This document shows, piece by piece, positions 1,937 through 51,182 of a DNA stretch of 64,000 nucleotides (positions are counted from its first letter, which is position 1; every line of letters starts with the position of its first letter). A model generated the notes under the pieces. That model was not told the DNA's origin, searched no databases, and saw nothing but the letters and a program-made list of their open reading frames with translations. Origin of the DNA: a virus. Location: positions 19,040 to 83,039 of IMG/VR virus record IMGVR_UViG_3300032397_000008. The stretch is one strand, 5' to 3'. The position numbers and the translations under genes were made by a program.

Positions 1937-3930
1937 ACTTCAAAGCGAAGATCGAACAACTTCGGGCGGAGATTACCCGGCACGGCCGTCTCTATTACAA
2001 CCAACAACCCGAAATCAGCGACGCCGATTATGACGTAAAGTTCAAGGAGTTGGGGGATCTTGAACGTCGGTTTCCTGAGTATGACGATCCGAACTCCCCC
2101 ACGGCACGAGTTGGCAGTCAGGTAGAGAGCGATTTCTCCCAAGGACGGCACAATCATAAAATGTTGTCTTTGGACAATACTTATAGCGCCGAGGAGGTTG
2201 CTACCTTCTTTGATCAGGATGATAAGCTCAAGGTGGTTGTGGCCGGAGAACCGAAGTTCGATGGGTGTTCCCTGGCACTTCACTATCGGGGTGGTCAGTT
2301 GGTACAGGCGATTACCCGAGGAGACGGATCAGTCGGTGAAGACGTGACACGCAGCGCCAGGACCATCAGGAGTATTCCGCTTGTTTTGCACCAACCTATT
2401 GACTTGGAGGTGCGAGGAGAGGTTGTCATGCAATTTTCGGTCTTCGCGGCATTGAATGCGGAGCTGGAGAAACAGGGCGAAGATTTGTTTGCCAACCCAC
2501 GCAACGCCGCCTCGGGCACGCTTAAGCAGAAAGATTCTCGGGTGGTTGCAAAGCGCAACCTTACGTTTATTGCTTATAGCTTGATCTCCGGTCACGTCCA
2601 TAGAACTCATGGCGACGCCATCTATAGCTTGCGGGAGATTGGATTCGTCACACCTATGAACGTGCCCGCTGTCAATGGACATAAGATTGAGGCGCTGTTT
2701 CTAGTTGAGGCGGATGCCATGTCCATCGGTCACGTGATCGAACGTTTCTCTGAATTGCGAGACAACTTCGACTTTCCTATCGATGGTGTCGTTTTCAAGA
2801 TCAACGATATTCAACTTCAGACCGAATTAGGCGATGGAACGCGTGCTCCTAAATGGGCAACAGCTTACAAGTATCCGCCGGAGCGTAAGATAACCCAGCT
2901 TCTTGATATTGAGGTTAGCGTGGGCCGTCATGGCACGATCACACCGGTTGCAATCCTCGCCCCAGTTCAACTTTCCGGTGTCACAGTGACCCGTGCAAGT
3001 CTGTGCAATCAGAACGAAGTTGATCGTTTGGGGATTGCCATCGGGGACGATGTTTATGTGGAACGGAGCGCTGACGTTATCCCAAAACTAATGGGTATAG
3101 CAAAAAAGAACACGGTGCAAACATGGCATCTGCCAGAGCAGTGTCCTTGCTGCAATACCAGGCTGTTGCGGGCTCAGGGCATGGTTGCTTACAAGTGTCC
3201 GAATCACTATTGCAAGGACCAGATTCGCCAGCGCCTGGAGCATGCATGCAGCAGGTCCGCATTGTACATCGACGGTGTTGGACCGGTGTTCATCGCCATG
3301 CTGATTCATCAAGGGGTAACCGACCTGTTGGGTCTTATGACGGTCGAGGTTGATGAGACGTCTGCCGCTAAGCGAAAGTTTGTCAAAGAGCGTAAGAAGG
3401 CGTTTCAGGCTCCATTGTGGCGTAAGCTGTATGCTTTGGGGATTGAGGGCGTAGGAAAATCCAAGTGTCAGGACTTGGTCTCACGGTGGAAATCTTTAGG
3501 TGAAATTGTAGACAACTTTGAGGAAGCCGAAACGGTGGTGCTCGGAGAAGTCCACGCTGCTAGTGTCGCTGATTTCCTACAGGAAAACGTGAGCCTGATC
3601 GAAGGATTGGAGAAGGCGGGATTTCATTTTGAGGAGGATAAGCAGAATATCGGACCGTTGTCGGGTAAGACGTTCGTCATCACGGGAACGCTTATGAGCG
3701 GTAAGCGGGATGACGTGATCCGCAAGATCGAGGCGGCCGGCGGCCGGGTTAGCAGTAGCGTGACGAAGAAGGTACAGTATCTGGTGTGCGGCATAGAGGG
3801 CGGTGCCAACAAGGCCGCTGCGGCGCAGAAGCTAGGTACTACAGTCATAAGCGAAGAGCGGCTTTATGCTCTTCTCGGGGAGGAAATGACACTTGTTAAC
3901 AATTCTCTGGGAGAAGGCGGAGGATTGTAG
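1933..3930 (+). CDS. ligA: NAD-dependent DNA ligase
   Basis: EPKFDG adenylation motif, EVRGEV, NPRNAASG, Cys zinc finger, HhH region, C-terminal BRCT (GKTFVITGTL). Confidence 0.97.
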   Translation: MNFKAKIEQLRAEITRHGRLYYNQQPEISDADYDVKFKELGDLERRFPEYDDPNSPTARVGSQVESDFSQGRHNHKMLSLDNTYSAEEVATFFDQDDKLKVVVAGEPKFDGCSLALHYRGGQLVQAITRGDGSVGEDVTRSARTIRSIPLVLHQPIDLEVRGEVVMQFSVFAALNAELEKQGEDLFANPRNAASGTLKQKDSRVVAKRNLTFIAYSLISGHVHRTHGDAIYSLREIGFVTPMNVPAVNGHKIEALFLVEADAMSIGHVIERFSELRDNFDFPIDGVVFKINDIQLQTELGDGTRAPKWATAYKYPPERKITQLLDIEVSVGRHGTITPVAILAPVQLSGVTVTRASLCNQNEVDRLGIAIGDDVYVERSADVIPKLMGIAKKNTVQTWHLPEQCPCCNTRLLRAQGMVAYKCPNHYCKDQIRQRLEHACSRSALYIDGVGPVFIAMLIHQGVTDLLGLMTVEVDETSAAKRKFVKERKKAFQAPLWRKLYALGIEGVGKSKCQDLVSRWKSLGEIVDNFEEAETVVLGEVHAASVADFLQENVSLIEGLEKAGFHFEEDKQNIGPLSGKTFVITGTLMSGKRDDVIRKIEAAGGRVSSSVTKKVQYLVCGIEGGANKAAAAQKLGTTVISEERLYALLGEEMTLVNNSLGEGGGL

Positions 3931-4002
3931 ACAATTGACTCATATTCGCTAACGTCTGATTATCATATAGTTATGAAGCAAATAATTTCTTGTAACTCGT
4001 GC

Positions 4003-4031
4003 TTGACTTCTCGGTTCTATAGGAGTATCGT
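4003..4031 (+). promoter_or_regulatory. sigma70-like promoter upstream of the leader and tRNA array
   Basis: TTGACT-17 bp-TATCGT. Confidence 0.55.
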
Positions 4032-4070
4032 CAGAATAGTCAGAGGCAAGGTGATTTGGCGATAGTTAGA

Positions 4071-4202
4071 ATGGAAATGCGACAACACTGGACAAGTCAG
4101 TATAGGTTGGAGACGCTGAAATCAGCGATGATCCCGACCTTTTGTACCCATAAAGGGTTACCTGTGGTCGCCGATGCAGAAAGAAAAAGTGTGGTGGGAT
4201 AG
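4071..4202 (+). CDS. Putative attenuator leader peptide (43 aa)
   Basis: MEMRQHWTSQYRLETLKSAMIPTFCTHKGLPVVADAERKSVVG*; its last codons overlap the antiterminator strand. Confidence 0.65.
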   Translation: MEMRQHWTSQYRLETLKSAMIPTFCTHKGLPVVADAERKSVVG

Positions 4203-4255
4203 GCGACCGAAGAAAAAGATTTCCCCACCACACCGAAAGGTTTGGTGGGTTTTTT
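4166..4255 (+). terminator. Attenuator with mutually exclusive terminator and antiterminator
   Basis: Terminator CCCACCACACC-GAAA-GGTTTGGTGGG-T6 (4224-4255); 4189-4198 GTGTGGTGGG is a perfect complement of 4224-4233; 4166-4172 pairs with 4202-4208. Confidence 0.75.
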
Positions 4256-4492
4256 GTTGGTTGGAGTTAGAAAGTCTCGGGTAGGAAAACCGCCGAGCGG
4301 CAGAGACAAAACTGCGACGGTAGAGGCAGAGCGTGAAAGCGCAGAGCCGGTGGCAGATCAGGGGCAGCCCGTGTGGTCTGACATCACCAACCTTAGGTCA
4401 AGCGTATTCAGATGCGCTTCACGATAGAAAGTGCGTTCTTGGGAAGAGAGACGGGTCAGACGTTTCTTCGACAGTTTCTCTTCCTTCAATTT

Positions 4493-4760
4493 TAATGGAA
4501 AGGTGGTAGGCTTAGAAGCAGCCAGCCATAAGAGTGACTCGTCCTTCTCTCACGAACCTGTCAAGAATCAACTTGCCAGATGACCCCGAAGTCCGAATAC
4601 AAGGGAATCCTTCCAACCTCAGCAATGAGGCCATAGGGCCTTTGCGGAAGGGATGAAAGCGTGGAGCAGCCCGTCAAGCCGGGCGAGGGCTACCGAGTAA
4701 GAAGCGGCGGGATACATGACGGTATTCCGGTCTTTAGCGTAACAGCACGCCTTTCCGTTA
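4493..4760 (+). ncRNA. ncRNA mimicking 23S rRNA H43/H44 (L11-binding domain) with a ~195-nt insertion
   Basis: GGCTTAGAAGCAGCCA (H43 loop) and AGCGTAACAGC (H44 loop), closed by a GGAAAGG/CCTTTCC stem. Confidence 0.7.
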
Positions 4761-4778
4761 TTTTTAACATTAGTTTTT

Positions 4779-4852
4779 GCGGGTGTGGTTTAATAGTAGA
4801 ATGTGGCCTTGCCGAGGCTAAGACGAGGGAGCATAACCCTTCACCCGCTCCA
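4779..4852 (+). tRNA. tRNA-Gly(GCC)
   Basis: Cloverleaf; loop TT-GCC-GA; encoded CCA. Confidence 0.85.
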
Positions 4853-4868
4853 TTTTGCGGCAATTCGT

Positions 4869-4942
4869 GGTGTCATCGTTTAGTGGCAGGACATAACTCT
4901 GGCAGAGTTGAGACGGGAGTCCGATTCTCCTTGATTCCACCA
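4869..4942 (+). tRNA. tRNA-Ala(GGC)
   Basis: Loop CT-GGC-AG; CCA; imperfect acceptor stem. Confidence 0.75.
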
Positions 4943-5190
4943 ATTTCTCAACCACCCTATCTTTTGTACCGATCGTGCATCAGCAGTAAAATGTATACAC
5001 GTTCTCGTGTATGTGCTGTTAAGATGCGTTGTTTCTTTGACAGTCTATTAGGCGTCCGACACGCCTAGCACGGGGTCAACACATCCTCGTCTGGATGGAG
5101 TGCTCGTGGAACGCTGCTAAAAGCGGTCAGGATAAACCACTTAGGTGGGCAGCCCTGACAGTCACTAATCGGTCAGTAAAGGACTTCGGG

Positions 5191-5274
5191 GGGCACGTGG
5201 TTCAACCAGAATAGCAGATGGTCCAGCTTCAAAACCTGGCAGCCTTAAAGGTGCAAGTCCTTTCGTGCCTACCA
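5191..5274 (+). tRNA. tRNA-Leu(CAA), atypical
   Basis: Loop TT-CAA-AA; expanded D region; 7-nt variable loop; CCA. Confidence 0.7.
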
Positions 5275-5301
5275 TTTGTAATTGTTCCACGTGAAGAATC
5301 A

Positions 5302-5377
5302 TCAGGTACGTGATGTAAGAGTAGCATCTCAGACTGTGAATCTGACCGTACGGGTGCGAATCCCGTCTACCTGACCA
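5302..5377 (+). tRNA. tRNA-His(GTG)
   Basis: TCAGA-CTGTGAA-TCTGA; CCA. Confidence 0.8.
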
Positions 5378-5380
5378 TTT

Positions 5381-5631
5381 CAAGCCAAAAAGCCAGAACG
5401 CTGGCCATGGTAATCAGCCTGTGGCTAGAGGAAGTTCAAGACTGCTCAACTCGTCGATTGGGAGGGCATTCGTGCCCGTTATCACCACAAGTCCGCAGCA
5501 ATCCTAAAGCGCCCCAGCATGTGAGTTGTGCGCTACGAGGGCATGGTTGGAGCAGCGGCTATTAGCAAGCCGCCAGGTTCGCCTGAGATAAATGTTCTGG
5601 ATAACAGAATCTTGGCTACCTTTTTGACTTG
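5381..5631 (+). ncRNA. rnpB: Compact RNase P RNA
   Basis: GAGGAAGTTCAAG and ACAGAATCTTGGCTA (P4 halves); AGATAAATG; P1 CAAGCCAAAAAG/CTTTTTGACTTG; P2 CCAGAAC/GTTCTGG. Confidence 0.8.
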
Positions 5632-5636
5632 ATTGT

Positions 5637-5712
5637 GGGGACGTGGCAGACAAGTGATGCACCTGGTCCGCAACTAGGTTTAAGCGGGAGCGTTACCCGT
5701 CGTTCTCCACCA
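5637..5712 (+). tRNA. tRNA-Ala(CGC)
   Basis: CCTGG-TCCGCAA-CTAGG; G3:U70; CCA. Confidence 0.75.
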
Positions 5713-5719
5713 ATTTCAC

Positions 5720-5794
5720 GGGGGATTAGTGATAGTGCCAGCACAACCGGTTTGCACCCGGTAAGCAGCGGTCGGATTCCGCTATCCTCCACCA
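5720..5794 (+). tRNA. tRNA-Ala(TGC)
   Basis: ACCGG-TTTGCAC-CCGGT; G3:U70; CCA. Confidence 0.85.
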
Positions 5795-5800
5795 TTTCAC

Positions 5801-5874
5801 GGGTCGGTAGTGTAACAGTAGCACAGCAGCCTCCAAACCTGCTTGTCAGGGTGCAAATCCTTGCCGACCTGCCA
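5801..5874 (+). tRNA. tRNA-Trp(CCA)
   Basis: Loop CT-CCA-AA; G73; CCA. Confidence 0.8.
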
Positions 5875-5880
5875 CCTTTC

Positions 5881-5955
5881 CGCCCGTTGGCCGATCCGCA
5901 AAGGCGGCGGTTTGCAGAACCGCAGAGGCTGGTGCAACTCCAGCACGGGCGTCCA
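5881..5955 (+). tRNA. tRNA-Cys(GCA)
   Basis: GCGGT-TTGCAGA-ACCGC; U73; CCA. Confidence 0.85.
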
Positions 5956-5977
5956 TTTAGAACCACGTAGTTAGGGT

Positions 5978-6613
5978 GTGAGATCACAGGACATCATTGA
6001 GGCGATAGTTGGCGATCAACCCGAAATCACCGATTATATCGTAGACATTTCTCGGTGGGCGGCGCAGACGGAACCCGATGACGAAAACGCTGCTATCGCA
6101 CTTGCCAACAAGGCGCTGGAAGAATACCGTGTAACGTACGTAACGGGTGACCCTATCGTATCTCACGGGGGTAGAGTAGAGGCAGACGGCACTATCAAAA
6201 TTGCTGTAGACAACGGATTCTACGACTTGGTAAACAGTAAACAGTTTCCAAGTGTGATTCAGCATGAGTTCGTTCATCAGGAGCAGGTGCGCCACGCTGG
6301 CGAAGGCGCTAGTAAGATGGCGGCGAACTCGTACAACCGATGCTTGAACCCTGATGGTTCGATTAACATGAAGGAGTACTACTTAATCCCTTACGAGATT
6401 ATGGCGTATGCTAAATCTGTGGCAGACAGTTTTAAGACGGCGGGTATGAGTAAGGATGAAGTGTTGAAGATGCTTCGAACGAAAGTGCATCTATGGAAAC
6501 TTCCATCGGACGTCCAAAAGTTTATTTATCCTTACTATTCCAGGCGCAAGAAGCATCCAGACGTGTGGCACAAGTTTCTTCGTTACACGATTGACTATGT
6601 TCGGAATTGGTAA
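5978..6613 (+). CDS. Zincin-like metallopeptidase-domain protein
   Basis: HEFVH (HExxH) plus downstream PYEIMAYA. Confidence 0.6.
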   Translation: MRSQDIIEAIVGDQPEITDYIVDISRWAAQTEPDDENAAIALANKALEEYRVTYVTGDPIVSHGGRVEADGTIKIAVDNGFYDLVNSKQFPSVIQHEFVHQEQVRHAGEGASKMAANSYNRCLNPDGSINMKEYYLIPYEIMAYAKSVADSFKTAGMSKDEVLKMLRTKVHLWKLPSDVQKFIYPYYSRRKKHPDVWHKFLRYTIDYVRNW

Positions 6614-6622
6614 AAATAATGC

Positions 6623-7165
6623 ATGGATGAGACTGTTCAAATCGCTGGGCGTTGGAACTACGAGTCATTCCTTGAGCCGATTCAATACGGTGAGACCGAA
6701 TCTTATCGACTGGCTGCTGCGTGGCTGAACGGTTGTTCTGAAGTTGAGGATTGGGGATGCGGATGTGCTTTCGCTAAGAGGTTTTTCACTACCCAGTACA
6801 TAGGCATTGACGGCAGCAAGAGTCTCTGGAATGATAAAGTTGCCGATTTGATGATTTATCGTAGCAAGACTGAGGGATTACATATACGCCATGTTCTGGA
6901 GCACAATTACCTATGGCGTCCGATCTTGCGGAACGCTCTTGACTCTTTTACCAAGCGGATGGTTCTGACCTTGTTTATCCGGCCGACACCGACGGATATG
7001 GATGTTTTTGGAACTGTGCAAAATCACTATTTTCAGGAGGTTCCAAATCGTGGCTTGTGCAAGAAAGACTTGATGGAAATGATAGGTTCGTTTTTGGTGG
7101 AAACTCACGAGCTGGATACCGGAGAGGTGGTTTACTTACTGGAAAAGAAGATCGATGGTAGTTAA
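6623..7165 (+). CDS. Putative class I SAM-dependent methyltransferase
   Basis: VEDWGCG motif I; YIGID; RHVLEH. Confidence 0.6.
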   Translation: MDETVQIAGRWNYESFLEPIQYGETESYRLAAAWLNGCSEVEDWGCGCAFAKRFFTTQYIGIDGSKSLWNDKVADLMIYRSKTEGLHIRHVLEHNYLWRPILRNALDSFTKRMVLTLFIRPTPTDMDVFGTVQNHYFQEVPNRGLCKKDLMEMIGSFLVETHELDTGEVVYLLEKKIDGS

Positions 7166-7170
7166 GGTGT

Positions 7171-7425
7171 ATGCCAAAATCTCGTGACATCATTGATGCG
7201 GTTGTGGAAGGCCATCACTACCCGGTAGAAGATGAGCCGCCGAGGGCGGGATTCACCAGCCCTGAGGAAGATACGGCATTCTACACTAAGAACCCGTTCC
7301 TGGCATATAACAAGGCTTTGGAGTTGGGTCGTCACGATGATCGCTTCTGGAGGGCTATTCGAGGGTCTGTCTACGAAAAGCCTTATGCCGAACGGTTCTT
7401 CCGCAAAAGTCGTCCGGCCGGGTAA
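7171..7425 (+). CDS. Hypothetical protein
   Basis: ORF after GTAGTTA motif; N-terminal DIIDAVVE. Confidence 0.6.
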   Translation: MPKSRDIIDAVVEGHHYPVEDEPPRAGFTSPEEDTAFYTKNPFLAYNKALELGRHDDRFWRAIRGSVYEKPYAERFFRKSRPAG

Positions 7426-7433
7426 ATAATTGT

Positions 7434-7519
7434 CCGCCACTAGACCGCTAAAGATACGGGGCAGGCTGTAAACCTGTCGTCTTCGGGCCAGGAAGGAGCA
7501 TTACCTTCGTGGCGGACCA
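7434..7519 (+). tRNA. tRNA-Tyr(GTA)
   Basis: GCAGG-CTGTAAA-CCTGT; long variable arm; CCA. Confidence 0.8.
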
Positions 7520-7526
7520 TTTTCAC

Positions 7527-7602
7527 GGGACGTTCTTCTAGTAGACCAGGATATTGCTCTGTCTAAGCAATGACTCGGGTGCGAATCCCGAACGTCTCGC
7601 CA
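7527..7602 (+). tRNA. tRNA-Asp(GTC)
   Basis: TTGCT-CTGTCTA-AGCAA; G73; CCA. Confidence 0.85.
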
Positions 7603-7619
7603 TTTTAGTTCTTGTAGGC

Positions 7620-8477
7620 ATGCGACTGTTGGATTATCAGAACGACGTGTTTTCTCAGAACGGTGAGGATGGAATCCTTGCTCAGGTTTTTAAGATCATC
7701 GGCGTGCGTCATAAACGGTGCATGGAGTTTGGGGCTTGGGACGGATTATACTTATCTAACGTAGCTCGTCTGTGGGCTGACGAAGGTTGGGAAGCTATCC
7801 TCGCCGAAAAAGACAGGTCTAGGTTCGATCAACTGGTCCGCAACACGTCGGACAAACCGGTCGAGTGTCACAACTTTGCGGTCGAATCGACCGGAGACCA
7901 CTCCATTGATACTATTTTGAACGGACGGGAACTCGATTTGATAGTGATTGATGTGGATGGAGACGACTGGCTTCTTTGGAAAAGCATGGTGTGCCGGCCA
8001 AGAGTGGCGGTTATCGAGTACAATTGTTCCGTACCGCTGGGAATATCTATGGCCCAAGCCTCGGGGGAATACTTCGGAGCATCGGCCCAGGTCTTGATCG
8101 ACATTGGTCGCCGCAAGGGCTATAGCTTGGTTGAGATGAACATTTGTAACTGCTTTTTTGTGCAGGACGAGTACCTGCCCTTGTTCAATGGATATGAGCT
8201 TGATCCGGTCAAGCTGTTCGATCCTCGTTTTTTGGTCTACGCTGTCAGTGCCTTTGACCGGCGCATGGCTTTGACCAGTAACGAATCGGCTTGGGGAGTC
8301 TTTCAGACGTGCACTGTCAATAAAATTCAGTTGGCAATATGTTGTGCCGATCAGGGTGTAGCTCAATCTAGTAGAGCGCCTGGCCTGGGACCAGGAGGTT
8401 GCAGGAGCGAAGCCTGTCACCCTGACCATTTTTACTCAAACGGTCTTGTTTACCGCACAGTAAACAAGACCATTTGA
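7620..8477 (+). CDS. FkbM-like methyltransferase; frame runs through tRNA-Pro
   Basis: FSQNGEDGIL, EFGAWDG, IDVDGDD, RPRVAVIEYN; likely ATG 7620. Confidence 0.75.
   Translation: MRLLDYQNDVFSQNGEDGILAQVFKIIGVRHKRCMEFGAWDGLYLSNVARLWADEGWEAILAEKDRSRFDQLVRNTSDKPVECHNFAVESTGDHSIDTILNGRELDLIVIDVDGDDWLLWKSMVCRPRVAVIEYNCSVPLGISMAQASGEYFGASAQVLIDIGRRKGYSLVEMNICNCFFVQDEYLPLFNGYELDPVKLFDPRFLVYAVSAFDRRMALTSNESAWGVFQTCTVNKIQLAICCADQGVAQSSRAPGLGPGGCRSEACHPDHFYSNGLVYRTVNKTI
8352..8428 (+). tRNA. tRNA-Pro(TGG)
   Basis: CCTGG-CCTGGGA-CCAGG; CCA. Confidence 0.8.
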
Positions 8478-8484
8478 GTAAACT

Positions 8485-8560
8485 CCGGGTGTAGTGTAGC
8501 AGTCAACATGCTTGTTTCGGGAACAAGTGATCGTGGATGCAAATTCCACCACCCGGACCA
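8485..8560 (+). tRNA. tRNA-Pro(CGG)
   Basis: CTTGT-TTCGGGA-ACAAG; CCA. Confidence 0.85.
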
Positions 8561-8563
8561 ATT

Positions 8564-8742
8564 TTGAGTCGCCTGGTGCTCCGACAAGGAGATCGCCAGT
8601 TAGGGAGAGCATGCTCGTGTCGGCAGGAGTGCCTCCCAAATTCCGCCTGCTCACGTGCCACGAGTCTGGCTTGTCAGGATCGCTGCGGCACCCAAATGGC
8701 ATGTCGTAACAGCGTAGTAGCGCACGTCGCCAGGTGACTCAA
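8564..8742 (+). ncRNA. Unknown structured RNA (~180 nt)
   Basis: Terminal stem TTGAGTCGCCTGGTG/CGCCAGGTGACTCAA with internal hairpins; no credible ORF. Confidence 0.5.
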
Positions 8743-8774
8743 TTACTTGTTATGCTTTCCGTTCTTACAGGCGT

Positions 8775-9116
8775 ATGTTAAAAGCAGTATGCAGCCGGTG
8801 TGGGCATGTTTGGGATGTGCCATTGGAAGCAGTACGATCGGGGGCGGGTGTAATTTTTCCGGGACATCCTCATTTTCAAACCTGGGCCGCAGATATGGAA
8901 TGTGCTCGATGTGGCATAGCGTGCCCTCATGTGTTAACCAAAGATGGACGCCCTTACAGGGAATCCGGGGATAAACAACGCATGTTAGAGAAGGCGGCGC
9001 AAGAGCCTGATCATTTTCTTATGGCATGTTTTACGGAAGGATACGAATCAATTTTATTGCCAGATAGCACAATAGAAATGCAGGCGGCTCTGACCATTTT
9101 GACGGGTCGTCGCTGA
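8775..9116 (+). CDS. Zn-ribbon hypothetical protein
   Basis: CSRC...CARC; GTTCTT motif upstream. Confidence 0.6.
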   Translation: MLKAVCSRCGHVWDVPLEAVRSGAGVIFPGHPHFQTWAADMECARCGIACPHVLTKDGRPYRESGDKQRMLEKAAQEPDHFLMACFTEGYESILLPDSTIEMQAALTILTGRR

Positions 9117-16830: not shown

Positions 16831-17267
16831 GGGGGCGTTACGGAATCGACTGACTGAACGAACCCGAATGCGACATGCCAAGGATGATCGTTGGCCTTGT
16901 AAAATCCCGATCAAAAGTCAAATGCTAAACACATATCTGACTCCCTGGTGAACGGTCTTAGGACCGCCTGGGCTCGAATCGTCGATCGTGCGGGTGCATT
17001 GATCGATGCAATTCGTAGCACTGCGGAACCGACCTTCGCCTCGATGGCGGCGTAAGCTACCACGTCCAACTCCCGATGTCTGCTGAGGAGAATGGGCGAA
17101 AACAGCAGGCAAAACAACAGCACTCGTAAGAGCTGATAATCTTCCGATAGGTGCCAGCAGATGCCAGGTGGCTAGGGTGAGCACCGAAGTAAACACCTGG
17201 AGAAGCATGTGTAAGCGTCGGTAAGTGCAGTTAGGACGCGAGGTTCGAATCCTCGCCGCCTCCACCA
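16831..17267 (+). ncRNA. ssrA: tmRNA
   Basis: 5' GGGGGCGTTACGGAATCGAC; 3' GGTTCGAATCCTCGCCGCCTCCACCA; tag frame ends FASMAA* at 17055. Confidence 0.92.
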
Positions 17268-36639: not shown

Positions 36640-37227
36640 ATGTCCTCATACACAATACAAAAAGCAAAGCCGGGGTGGAACTACAAACGAGTAGGAAAGA
36701 TCGTTTCGGGTGATCCCTCCCTTAAGCGTTTTATTGGCGAAAAAACTGTCTCTATCGAACGGCGTAACGGGACGACCGTCAATTATTCTCCCGAGCTGAT
36801 TCTACTCATGGAAGCCATGGCGCAGGCCGGCATTCCGCTTCAGACATGCCCTAAGACTACTGTTTTGCAGTTCGCTGCGAGGTTCTGGATTAAGGAATCC
36901 TTCAAGTCCGTATCCGTACCGGTGGTCGCCGCTCCCGCCCAGCCCTCGAAGCCCGCTCCGGCATCCTTAAAAGCGGCTATACCTCGGAAAGAAGAAGTTC
37001 AGAATAAAGTTTTGAAATCAGACGAGAAGCCAACTTTTTGCGCCGCCGTAGCGTTGGCAAATCTGTCCATGTCCATGCTTCAGCTGGCCGAGCATTATGA
37101 CACATCTCCGGGAGCGGATAAGCGCCGGGAGAAACTGAACGCTCTTGCCACTGAGTATGAGCATCTCACAACGAGTTACTTAGACGGATGCTGGGAAGCC
37201 GGCATACGACACAATGCCAAAGCTTAA
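36640..37227 (+). CDS. Hypothetical protein
   Basis: Coupled ORF. Confidence 0.6.
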   Translation: MSSYTIQKAKPGWNYKRVGKIVSGDPSLKRFIGEKTVSIERRNGTTVNYSPELILLMEAMAQAGIPLQTCPKTTVLQFAARFWIKESFKSVSVPVVAAPAQPSKPAPASLKAAIPRKEEVQNKVLKSDEKPTFCAAVALANLSMSMLQLAEHYDTSPGADKRREKLNALATEYEHLTTSYLDGCWEAGIRHNAKA

Positions 37228-39325
37228 GGTACACGAGCCGATTTCAGGAGAACATATCTTTCCAGCATCTCAAATCACTCCATTGGCGGTAAAGTGGAAG
37301 GAATTGAACACTGCGGGTCGCCATGAGCAGGCGATGCTGATTCTGGAAGATATCGTAAAACTGTCAACTTCTATGTTTGAGCGCCTGGCTCAGCATGAGG
37401 ATTTCCATCATACGGTTGATCTCAGCATCCTGGTGTCGGCCGCTCAAGAGAAGGTGATCAAGTGGCTGCTCCGGTGGAATCCTAAGAAAGGAAGAATTTT
37501 TTCATGGTTTTCGCTTAGTGAGCGAACGCAAATCCTTCTTCCAGATGGTAATACACGACAGATCGGTGATCTAGTAAATGAACGGTATAGCGGTAAGGTG
37601 ATGTGTTGGAATTTTGAAAAGAAAGCATTTGAAGCCAAGCAAGTCACTGACTGGAGTAAAAAACCGTGCAAACGAAAAGATTGGCGTAAACTTATTGTAA
37701 CGCGACCCAGCGGATATTCTCGCTACATTTACATCACCAAAGACCACCGAGTTTGGACCCAAACAGGATGGGCGTGTGTAGATTGGCTCAATCCTAGAGA
37801 TCTCCTTAGTGTCGATAAACCGACTTTGACCAAAGACGGACAAGCAGCTTTGTTGGGTTTGTACTTGGGAGATGGTTCAGTTTTTAAGAATGATTTTCGA
37901 GTTACACACGGAAAAGATCAACGTTTCTACAATGAATGGTTACTGAAGAAATTTAGGGGTAATCTGTACGATTGTCACACTGTTGGGTGGAATAAGTTTA
38001 CCAAGACGACGATGGACCATTCTGGTGAAACTATCATGTATTTCCATGCCGCCGATATGTGGCCAGAATTTGAAAATTTGAGTCATCCTAAGAAGATTAC
38101 TCCGTGGATTTTGGATCGTCTTACACCACTAAGTTTAGCGATATGGTATATGGACGACGGCAGCTACGCAGAAAGTCAATTCGGTCAAGTGACGTTGGCG
38201 TCCCATGGATTTACTGAGCCGGAGCGTGGGCTTATTGTGAATGCTCTCAAGTGCCGATTTGGCATAACTGCTAATACGCACAAGGGTGGCTCCATATACG
38301 TCACCGAACAATCTAAGAATACGTTTTTTTCTCTTATTGCGCCGTATGTATTACAAGAATTCAGCTACAAGATAAAAGAGTCTTATCGACATGTTTCAAA
38401 GGTTGATTCCATGTTCGTTGAAGATCAAATAGAGCTAGTCAGTCACAAAGATATCGCCGTTTCAGGAGAAAGTTACTGGGAAGCAAAGAAGGTGTTTAAG
38501 CCGGTTTACAGGTCTGGCGAGACTACAAAAATGCTTCGATGGAAGTACGATTTGACCGTAGAAGGTAATCACAACTTTTTTGCGGGTCGATGTAAGTTGT
38601 TGGTATCCAACTCCAAATGTGCCAAGCACGCTTTTCTTTCTGAACTGGTCAAGGTCAACCAGTACCGAAAACGGTATCATGTTACCGGTGATAACCTGGA
38701 GAAATACTTCGGGGAGGTTGACCAGACTAGTGAGCGTCACAACCTGGCGGAGGAGTTTAATAACCGTCTGAAGACGCTTTATTGCTACTGGGGTAGCTTA
38801 CAGGAGCGAGGGGCGATTCGATATCTAGTGGAATGTGTCATAGACCTGGATAATCATGACCGGCAGGAGGCGATTCGCGGAGCTGCCTATGCTTACGGTA
38901 TCGGAATTGATTTGTCCAAATTTTTCTATAACTTCGTGCTGGTATCTTTGCGAGACCTGCATTACGATAAGATTCGTGTTTCGGTATCAGAGCACGACCT
39001 GCTGCGACTCCAGCAGGCGTATTCGACGTTTATGTTTTTGATGGAGGAGCTTCCTCCTGATAAGATCAAACGATTTATAGCGGTGTACGGCGGACAGAGA
39101 TTCAAGGTGCCAACCATACAGCAGGTGTACAAGCTAAAAGAAGATTTCAAAATCTTTCAAGAGATCGATCGAAGCAGTCAGGACCCGGATGCGATCAATG
39201 AAGCAGCTAAGAAGTTCAAGAAAACGCCACGCACGGCCTCGGAAATTTACCACGAGATGGCAGAAACACTTAACCCCGCCAGGAACGGGGAATTTGGAGT
39301 TTACAGCGACGACCCGTATGAATGA
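37214..39325 (+). CDS. Sigma-factor-like protein (gp55-like region 2) containing an intein
   Basis: Spliced extein reads WNPKKGRIFSWF|SKCAKHAFL. Confidence 0.6.
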   Translation: MPKLKVHEPISGEHIFPASQITPLAVKWKELNTAGRHEQAMLILEDIVKLSTSMFERLAQHEDFHHTVDLSILVSAAQEKVIKWLLRWNPKKGRIFSWFSLSERTQILLPDGNTRQIGDLVNERYSGKVMCWNFEKKAFEAKQVTDWSKKPCKRKDWRKLIVTRPSGYSRYIYITKDHRVWTQTGWACVDWLNPRDLLSVDKPTLTKDGQAALLGLYLGDGSVFKNDFRVTHGKDQRFYNEWLLKKFRGNLYDCHTVGWNKFTKTTMDHSGETIMYFHAADMWPEFENLSHPKKITPWILDRLTPLSLAIWYMDDGSYAESQFGQVTLASHGFTEPERGLIVNALKCRFGITANTHKGGSIYVTEQSKNTFFSLIAPYVLQEFSYKIKESYRHVSKVDSMFVEDQIELVSHKDIAVSGESYWEAKKVFKPVYRSGETTKMLRWKYDLTVEGNHNFFAGRCKLLVSNSKCAKHAFLSELVKVNQYRKRYHVTGDNLEKYFGEVDQTSERHNLAEEFNNRLKTLYCYWGSLQERGAIRYLVECVIDLDNHDRQEAIRGAAYAYGIGIDLSKFFYNFVLVSLRDLHYDKIRVSVSEHDLLRLQQAYSTFMFLMEELPPDKIKRFIAVYGGQRFKVPTIQQVYKLKEDFKIFQEIDRSSQDPDAINEAAKKFKKTPRTASEIYHEMAETLNPARNGEFGVYSDDPYE
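37511..38611 (+). mobile_element. Intein with LAGLIDADG endonuclease (367 aa)
   Basis: Starts SLSERTQILLPDG; LGLYLGDG and IWYMDDG; ends YDLTVEGNHNFFA..LLVSN|S. Confidence 0.88.
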
Positions 39326-50718: not shown

Positions 50719-50751
50719 AAAACCCCTTCCGGGAGTCCGGGAGGGGTTTTT
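50719..50751. terminator. Bidirectional terminator; inverted copy at 51150
   Basis: A4-CCCCTTCCGG..CCGGGAGGGG-T5. Confidence 0.8.
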
Positions 50752-51149: not shown

Positions 51150-51182
51150 AAAAACCCCTCCCGGACTCCCGGAAGGGGTTTT
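51150..51182. terminator. Bidirectional terminator; reverse complement of 50719-50751
   Basis: Exact 33-nt match. Confidence 0.8.

Follow-up and report, generated by a model that had tools for sequence, protein, structure and literature searches.

Transcription attenuators of the trp, his, leu, thr, ilv, and pheA operons carry runs of codons for the sensed amino acid in their leaders and control biosynthetic enzymes, and T-box leaders bind one uncharged tRNA directly, with no translation needed. Large phages often carry dozens of tRNA genes, and to our knowledge the control of their expression is largely unknown. Here we describe a candidate switch that precedes such a tRNA array in a stretch of 64,000 nucleotides (the window), i.e. 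bases 19040-83039 of the 83-kb virus record IMGVR_UViG_3300032397_000008. It consists of a 43-codon leader open reading frame (ORF, 4071-4202) whose last codons are complementary to the 5' arm of an intrinsic terminator just behind it. We regard it as probably a ribosome-mediated transcription attenuator at the entry to the tRNA region that senses overall decoding speed, this being the most likely signal because the leader rarely repeats codons and uses nearly every amino acid.

The locus has in common with trp/his-type attenuators a short leader ORF, an intrinsic terminator, and an antiterminator sharing a strand with that terminator, an arrangement in which the position of the ribosome decides the outcome and a ribosome at the stop codon favours termination. 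In contrast, the phage leader avoids repeats, uses nearly all amino acids, precedes RNA genes, and is three times longer than trpL. A first-pass annotation, made from the sequence alone, had recognised the geometry of trp/his attenuators here; terminator, shared-strand antiterminator, and ORF placement agree with that description, but the regulatory codon run is absent. Because of this absence, and because the controlled genes are RNAs, we do not file the element with the trp/his group in the narrow sense. T-box leaders are likewise terminator/antiterminator switches responding to the tRNA pool, but the phage leaders differ from them in conserving an open frame and in lacking a T-box match (none at E up to 1 in window positions 3800-9000, or at E up to 0.5 in three relatives).

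By analogy, the functionally closest systems would be upstream ORF (uORF) attenuators that answer many kinds of translation trouble. The mycobacterial whiB7 uORF reportedly responds to knock-down of tRNAs, of tRNA synthetases, and of genes for amino-acid biosynthesis; species differ in its sequence but share its alanine-enriched composition (PMC10274678). Like the phage locus, whiB7 combines an upstream ORF with an antitermination architecture, and many translation lesions are reported to trigger it; however, whiB7 controls a drug-resistance transcription factor, whereas the phage leader is without a single enriched residue and precedes a structured RNA and tRNAs (PMC10274678). The leaders of bmrCD (leader bmrB; PMC4191407) and msrD (10.1101/2021.11.29.470318), as reported, also join a leader ORF to a terminator/antiterminator pair, with stalling giving read-through, but their trigger is a ribosome-targeting drug, often acting with a specific leader peptide, and their targets are transporters or ABC-F factors. 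In Anabaena, a long tRNA operon is reportedly induced under translational stress, and this extra array stays quiet until translation is impaired, as is proposed for the phage array (PMC8421152). It differs in reportedly being governed by a transcriptional repressor, TrcR (PMC10272220), and in lying on a bacterial megaplasmid, and the available part of the report mentions no leader peptide.

In the full-text literature we found no published leader-peptide attenuator before tRNA genes, a provisional result given that supplements and subscription journals lie outside that coverage. With such a switch ahead of the tRNA genes of a phage, the production of tRNAs would depend directly on the decoding performance of ribosomes. 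Its design, with many codons sensed at once and not one amino acid, would be unusual among attenuators and would provide a compact, portable sensor of translation capacity.

Elements of the candidate switch and their pairing

The elements and their immediate surroundings in the window are as follows:

3935-3963, + strand: first sigma-70-like promoter match (9/12), ahead of a 30-codon ORF at 3973-4065
4003-4031, + strand: second sigma-70-like promoter match (9/12), putative
4063-4068, + strand: six-base gene-start word, two bases ahead of the leader ATG
4071-4202, + strand: leader ORF of 43 codons plus amber stop, with equivalents in four other lineages
4166-4172, + strand: 5' strand of helix P1, within the ORF and present in the minimum-energy fold
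4189-4198, + strand: last codons of the ORF, forming the 5' strand of the antiterminator, which is the pairing of lowest energy in the nascent RNA
4202-4208, + strand: 3' strand of helix P1, whose first base is the third of the stop codon; same register in five lineages
4224-4249, + strand: intrinsic terminator hairpin, whose 5' arm (4224-4233) doubles as the 3' strand of the antiterminator
4250-4255, + strand: T run completing the terminator
4256-4490, + strand: structured RNA closed by a long hairpin and a T-rich tail, adjoining the 3' side of the switch
4779-4849, + strand: first tRNA gene of the array (Rfam tRNA, 50 bits)

The components that the first-pass annotation had listed are all in place. 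The leader ORF, for which an upstream in-frame TTG at 4056 is an alternative listed start, uses 19 of the 20 amino acids (Asn is absent) and 34 distinct codons among its 43, of which 33 occur within the first 38. The terminator at 4224-4255 was confirmed, and so was its complement: positions 4189-4198 and 4224-4233 form ten perfect pairs with a duplex energy of -21.2 kcal/mol compared to a shuffle mean of -9.7, a value matched by a fraction of only 0.0006 of 5000 shuffles of the upstream 87 bases. The third helix that had been considered possible, P1 (4166-4172/4202-4208), comprises seven perfect pairs and belongs to the minimum-energy fold; one of 3000 shuffles was as good. As a control, we determined the best pairing of the 5' arm with the 87 upstream bases for 33 terminator-like hairpins on both strands of the window. 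The hairpin at 4224 was the strongest among them (-20.8 kcal/mol, with the runners-up at -13.8 and -12.5), and a strong upstream complement is unique to it. The 83-kb record contains a single copy of the element, and there is no enrichment of its core word in the window.

Known RNA families did not account for the locus, as no curated Rfam cis-regulatory family was found at or near gathering score in the window or in three relatives. The one Rfam match nearby was to an unrelated small-RNA family at 4250-4365 (24 bits, cut-off 49, E 0.18).

The promoter that had been placed at 4003-4031 exists as a 9/12 match, but sigma-70-like matches as a class are not above chance in the window (7 compared to 5.6 +/- 2.8 expected). 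Leaders of the relatives are preceded by AT-rich stretches with similar hexamers (judged by eye). The gene-start word ahead of the leader ATG has 23 copies in the window, 11 of them with an ATG (ORF of at least 60 codons) within 12 bases and several more before GTG starts. It is usually preceded by G and stands about four bases ahead of many starts (e.g. 16313, 26388, 56495, 60714), and it often contains the stop codon of the preceding gene. Candidate roles for this word are those of a ribosome-binding signal, a gene-junction cassette, and a phage promoter. The 30-codon ORF at 3973-4065 ends five bases before the leader ATG with its stop codon inside this word, and it could be translationally coupled to the leader.

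The layout in related phages

In the window, an NAD-dependent DNA ligase gene ends at 3930 and is followed by 848 bases without a long ORF. Relatives were reached via an alignment of 16 head proteins, which led to 60 IMG/VR loci. The ligase was sought in 27 of the larger records and found in 16 (identity 44-50%), and the 8 kb downstream of 15 of these genes were inspected. A tRNA array in the window's orientation was present in four records, G003, G004, G005, and G006, the last two of which are nearly identical and were treated as one lineage. A tRNA search in 18 further records revealed arrays in G010, G013, G016, and G017; G013 and G016 share one element, and the array of G017 begins at the contig end, so its upstream region is absent. 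The head of the tRNA region was thus readable in six lineages, i.e. the window, G003, G004, G005/G006, G013/G016, and G010.

Five of these six lineages have a common layout, namely an ATG-initiated ORF of 39-49 codons, a pairing ORF end, a terminator with a T run, a structured RNA, and tRNA genes. The terminator lies 21-31 bases past the stop codon, and the structured RNA behind it spans about 150-230 bases in all five. In G013 the complementary codons are situated about five codons before the ORF end, rather than being the last ones. The antiterminator duplex exceeded shuffled sequences (5000 each) with P values of 0.0006 in the window, <0.0002 in G003, 0.0046 in G004, 0.0064 in G006, and 0.0028 in G013. 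The helix sequences vary by lineage and the pairing is retained in all five. A proposed check, to look before the tRNA arrays of relatives for a short, codon-diverse ORF with its stop in the same position and with helices kept, came out positively in four of the five lineages other than the window. A P1-like flanking helix can be drawn in the five lineages as well. In each of them, the third base of the stop codon is the first base of its 3' strand, and the antiterminator strand lies in the loop of 28-36 bases closed by the helix. Gene order is conserved along with the layout: ligase, leader, terminator, structured RNA, and tRNA genes follow each other in G003, G004, and G005/G006 as in the window, and G013/G016 have the order leader, terminator, structured RNA, and tRNA genes.

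A closer view of the window's own lineage comes from a 352-base contig of sediment run X14, which aligns to 4189-4260 with four substitutions and four gap positions. All listed insertions and deletions fall in the spacer between the helices. To judge from its sequence, this contig is a diverged copy from the lineage of the window.

Direct DNA searches and searches based on the ligase yielded no close relative covering the leader. No match was obtained in a DNA similarity search of 3931-4780 against 50,697 phage records, and the single ligase protein found no close relative in IMG/VR. An alignment of three ligase sequences retrieved eight IMG/VR loci, all at 34% identity or less. Ten loci were found with the ligase in JGI metagenomes; one of them is close (L128, 77%), covers the N-terminal part only, and stops short of the leader. 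The two closest ligases have 73% (P0002) and 71% (P0003, on a 146-kb contig) identity. BLAST of a relative's element against 40 related records recovered G004-G006 only, and a search with the protein just upstream of the relatives' leader ended in the same three records. A first IMG/VR pattern of two complementary strands was palindromic and unspecific, with at least 118 stretches matched, and was not used; a stricter three-part pattern found nothing in IMG/VR.

Codon variety, ribosome position, and competing explanations

Codon diversity of the window leader is above that of equal-length windows of the phage's own genes at P 0.034, which makes the earlier caveat that it is only modestly above chance right for this leader alone; the relatives raise it. 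Their leaders have 38 distinct codons of 49, 37 of 44, 39 of 42, and 33 of 39, and 20, 20, 20, and 18 distinct amino acids, respectively, and all five leaders exceed windows of the phage's own genes. Because codon preference might distort a comparison with real genes, a uniform draw from the 61 sense codons was also used as the most permissive null model. All five leaders lie above its mean (P 0.08, 0.035, 0.006, 0.00007, and 0.065, the window first). Stop-free shuffles of each ORF gave the same picture, and alternative in-frame starts gave P values from 0.0001 to 0.24, always above the null mean. Fisher's combination amounts to ~1e-6 if the five leaders are treated as independent, and to ~0.009 when the window and G013 are combined with just one of the three closer relatives, the weakest. 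There is no run of codons for one amino acid, and codon repeats are below the uniform model in all five leaders.

This variety does not mirror the tRNA set of the array. The window leader is without Asn despite two tRNA-Asn genes, and the G013 leader is without Trp despite a tRNA-Trp and uses Asp, Gly, Ile, and Ser, for which ARAGORN detected no tRNA in its array. Therefore, the diversity looks general and not matched to the array. A design for many codons has, as far as sequences can tell, comparative support.

Moreover, the frame of the leader is kept and its peptide is not. In shuffled loci, an ATG ORF of at least 39 codons with its stop between the antiterminator strand and the terminator arose in 3.5-8.5% of trials, which for four lineages gives a joint chance of 4e-6, or of ~1e-4 with the three closer relatives counted once. 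Between G004 and G006, the indel within the ORF measures 3 bases, and the terminator stem downstream of the ORF has one of 2 bases. The X14 contig has no stop in the window frame in the 30 letters upstream of its match and is nine bases longer than the window between shared words (both by eye). In both pairs, length differences inside the ORF thus keep the frame. Among the 38 aligned codons of G004 and G006, 11 are identical, 2 differ synonymously, and 25 non-synonymously, with 19, 16, and 16 differences at the three codon positions and no third-position bias. An open frame without a conserved protein fits a regulatory leader, in which selection would act on translation, and not a functional small protein.

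Folding models assign a role to the end of this frame. Each folded segment began 35 bases ahead of the ATG and ended with the terminator, and a 28-base stretch around each A-site codon in turn was barred from pairing. When the A site was placed on any of the last 7-11 codons or at the stop, the terminator reached a probability of 1.0 in all five lineages, and the first-pass proposal that a ribosome at the stop masks the antiterminator and causes termination is reproduced by these ribosome-masked folds. When the RNA was cut just past the 3' strand of the antiterminator, the antiterminator formed in all five. In the models, a ribosome at the leader end forcing termination and an antiterminator forming first without it is what the lineages have in common, and together this fits a race between ribosome and RNA polymerase.

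Such a race might proceed as follows. Transcription would start upstream of 4071, and a ribosome would translate the 43-codon leader. By pairing with 4224-4233, positions 4189-4198 would withhold this strand from the terminator hairpin. A ribosome in pace with RNA polymerase would occupy the last codons and the stop at the moment 4224-4233 emerges; the antiterminator would then be blocked, the terminator would form, and transcription would end near 4255. If the ribosome was late or had stalled earlier, 4189-4198 would be free, the antiterminator would form first, and read-through would enter the conserved structured RNA and then head towards the tRNA genes. Stalling at almost any codon, with host anticodon-nuclease attack or starvation as hypothetical triggers, had been expected to free the antiterminator, which the equilibrium folds of the window do not bear out: only A-site codons 31-36, which cover the 5' strand of P1, shift the fold, with an antiterminator probability of 0.4-0.6. 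A delay at any codon would have to act via the kinetic race. In the trp leader, a pause hairpin synchronises ribosome and polymerase; P1 might likewise be a pause or synchronising hairpin, or it might be part of a pseudoknot with the antiterminator.

We tentatively take this one step further, to a reading that we consider possible and somewhat short of probable. The leader might be a codon pangram, selected for maximal variety of codons and amino acids, whose total reading time gauges the whole tRNA pool. A lag anywhere would let the antiterminator win, the structured RNA would be expressed first and the tRNAs after it. If true, this general gauge of decoding capacity, assembled from the components of a trp-type attenuator, would explain how the phage times the deployment of its tRNAs, e.g. 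after host tRNA cleavage or shut-off.

Several observations weigh against an attenuator that senses overall decoding speed. Equilibrium folds without a ribosome favour the terminator in the window, G004, and G006 but the antiterminator in G003 and G013, and no stall position yields the antiterminator at equilibrium in G006. G010, the sixth lineage, is counted as a miss: a 23-codon ORF and a terminator are present, but the best complement there does not exceed chance (P 0.17). The flanking helix is above shuffles in three of the five lineages (P 0.0003, 0.010, and 0.013) and not in the other two (0.27 and 0.48). For the window leader taken alone, the number of amino acids (P 0.07) and the codon diversity compared to the uniform-codon model (P 0.03-0.13, depending on the start chosen) are weak. 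The three closer relatives are not independent samples. Moreover, the window leader could not be aligned to the leaders of the relatives, and a covariance model of one relative (R1) finds G004 and G003 and misses the elements of the window and G013; therefore, architecture and synteny are the basis for homology. The leader ORFs were missed by gene callers, and the leader peptides have no homologue in protein collections except for one 62-residue entry, which we take as a longer form of the G003 leader. A classical Shine-Dalgarno word is absent upstream of the leader and likewise upstream of the 45 longest ORFs of the window. No RNA run is listed among the runs that contain the stretch. Finally, promoter-like sites inside the array and the hairpin at ~4441-4490 may uncouple the tRNA genes from the switch.

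The conservation of alternative helices, and not of the peptide, would also be expected of an RNA switch on which a protein, small molecule, or tRNA acts in trans, in the manner of protein-mediated attenuators, T-boxes, or riboswitches, and in which the ORF is incidental or secondary. On our reading of the geometry, P1 and the antiterminator could make a pseudoknot-like pocket; the 5' portion of the leader has a good fold (z -2.9), some compensatory pairs occur among three relatives, and the missing Shine-Dalgarno word points in the same direction. We nevertheless consider such a switch unlikely, since the frame is open in all five lineages, the stop has a fixed register at the start of the 3' strand of P1, length changes inside the ORF are in frame, and a gene-start word stands ahead of the ATG. 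Further, an untranslated RNA has no reason for codon diversity above the uniform model, and neither a T-box nor another Rfam family matches at E up to 1.

With a promoter-like site before it and a strong terminator after it, the ORF could also belong to an independent small gene for a protein of 43 residues or for a ~215-base small RNA, with the complement serving e.g. transcript stability. The next RNA is closed by a hairpin and T-rich tail of its own, so the units may be separate, and trans-acting roles have been reported in other bacteria both for leader peptides and for the terminated RNAs of attenuators (PMC7298713, PMC7968998). It is rather improbable here: a gene of this kind should have conserved residues and mostly synonymous changes, which are not seen, whereas the competing pairing, unique among the 33 hairpins of the window, is kept in five lineages with changed sequence, and all five have the element at the head of the tRNA region. 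An arrest-peptide sensor of the TnaC or SecM kind, with a specific nascent motif stalling the ribosome for one signal, is very improbable, for although three relatives share a Trp and, some 15 residues later near the leader end, Arg-Thr-x-Glu-Pro, this motif is missing from the window leader and a similar stretch lies near the N-terminus in G013, the bases of the shared residues also form conserved helices so that the constraint may be on the RNA, and a stall at that proline would cover the antiterminator strand and cause termination just as normal completion does.

The tRNA region and its phage

If the locus is a ribosome-mediated attenuator, the structured RNA at 4256-4490 may be the first thing it controls. 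This RNA has a fold z-score of -2.4 and ends in a hairpin with a T-rich tail (~4441-4490). Its core can be aligned to the equivalently placed RNA of five other lineages (L226 662-830, L220 1424-1640, L227 1424-1620, and L246 and L245 on the reverse strand), and it has no Rfam match. G003-G006 carry a 26-base word of it in identical or almost identical form, and a search with a motif from this RNA found these records only. The structured RNA and the first tRNA are separated by a gene of about 100 codons in G004 and G006.

The switch certainly stands at the entry to the tRNA region. Its gating of the whole array, with tmRNA and RNase P, as the first-pass annotation had it, does not follow, because the structured RNA with its closing hairpin intervenes and promoter-like sites lie inside the array, even if these are not above chance (20 compared to 16.1 +/- 3.8 expected). 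There are few strong terminators on the array strand. The claimed number of 42 tRNAs was not confirmed: ARAGORN counts 23 at default settings, and Rfam 19 at gathering score with a few more below it. Relaxed ARAGORN settings produced many overlapping false calls and were not used for the comparison of codons to tRNAs. The supposed RNase P RNA is reduced to a sub-threshold match of the archaeal family at 5384-5628 (16 bits, cut-off 84, E 0.14). A tmRNA gene is present at 16831-17267 (Rfam, gathering score). In sum, what the annotation observed at the switch was confirmed and how it interpreted the locus is partly supported.

The arrays of relatives contain weak Y-RNA-like (YrlA) matches (E 0.03-0.04) and a partial tmRNA match (L226 6029-6131 and 6007-6080; L227 4576-4702). 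Short contigs of other contexts, from three sediment runs, align to the window at 4501-4537 and 4722-4765; we take 4510-4525 to match a universally conserved loop of 23S rRNA, which would account for these foreign contigs.

The stretch is present in 20 sediment metagenome runs, and its record has a completeness estimate of 36%. The window encodes a T4-type major head protein (precomputed Pfam PF07068; PHROG major head protein), a recombinase, a ribonucleotide reductase, and further phage replication genes. Many relatives of the head protein have 75-94% identity and lie on contigs of up to ~246 kb, and the best match among isolated phages reaches only ~30% identity (50,697 phage records). Because of the size of these contigs and the lack of isolates among the head-protein relatives, the window is, judging by its sequence, a member of an uncultured clade of phages of ~230 kb.

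The only head-protein relative in GTDB genomes is on a 3.8-kb contig (L255) binned with uncultured Flavobacteriales. This is a weak hint at the host, which would fit the absence of Shine-Dalgarno words. Elsewhere in the window, a 703-residue ORF (37214-39322) has a LAGLIDADG homing-endonuclease domain at residues 204-389 and may represent an intein or an endonuclease inserted within a replication gene. Two near-identical GC-rich hairpins (50722-50747 and 51153-51180) are mutual reverse complements, and each reads as a terminator on both strands.

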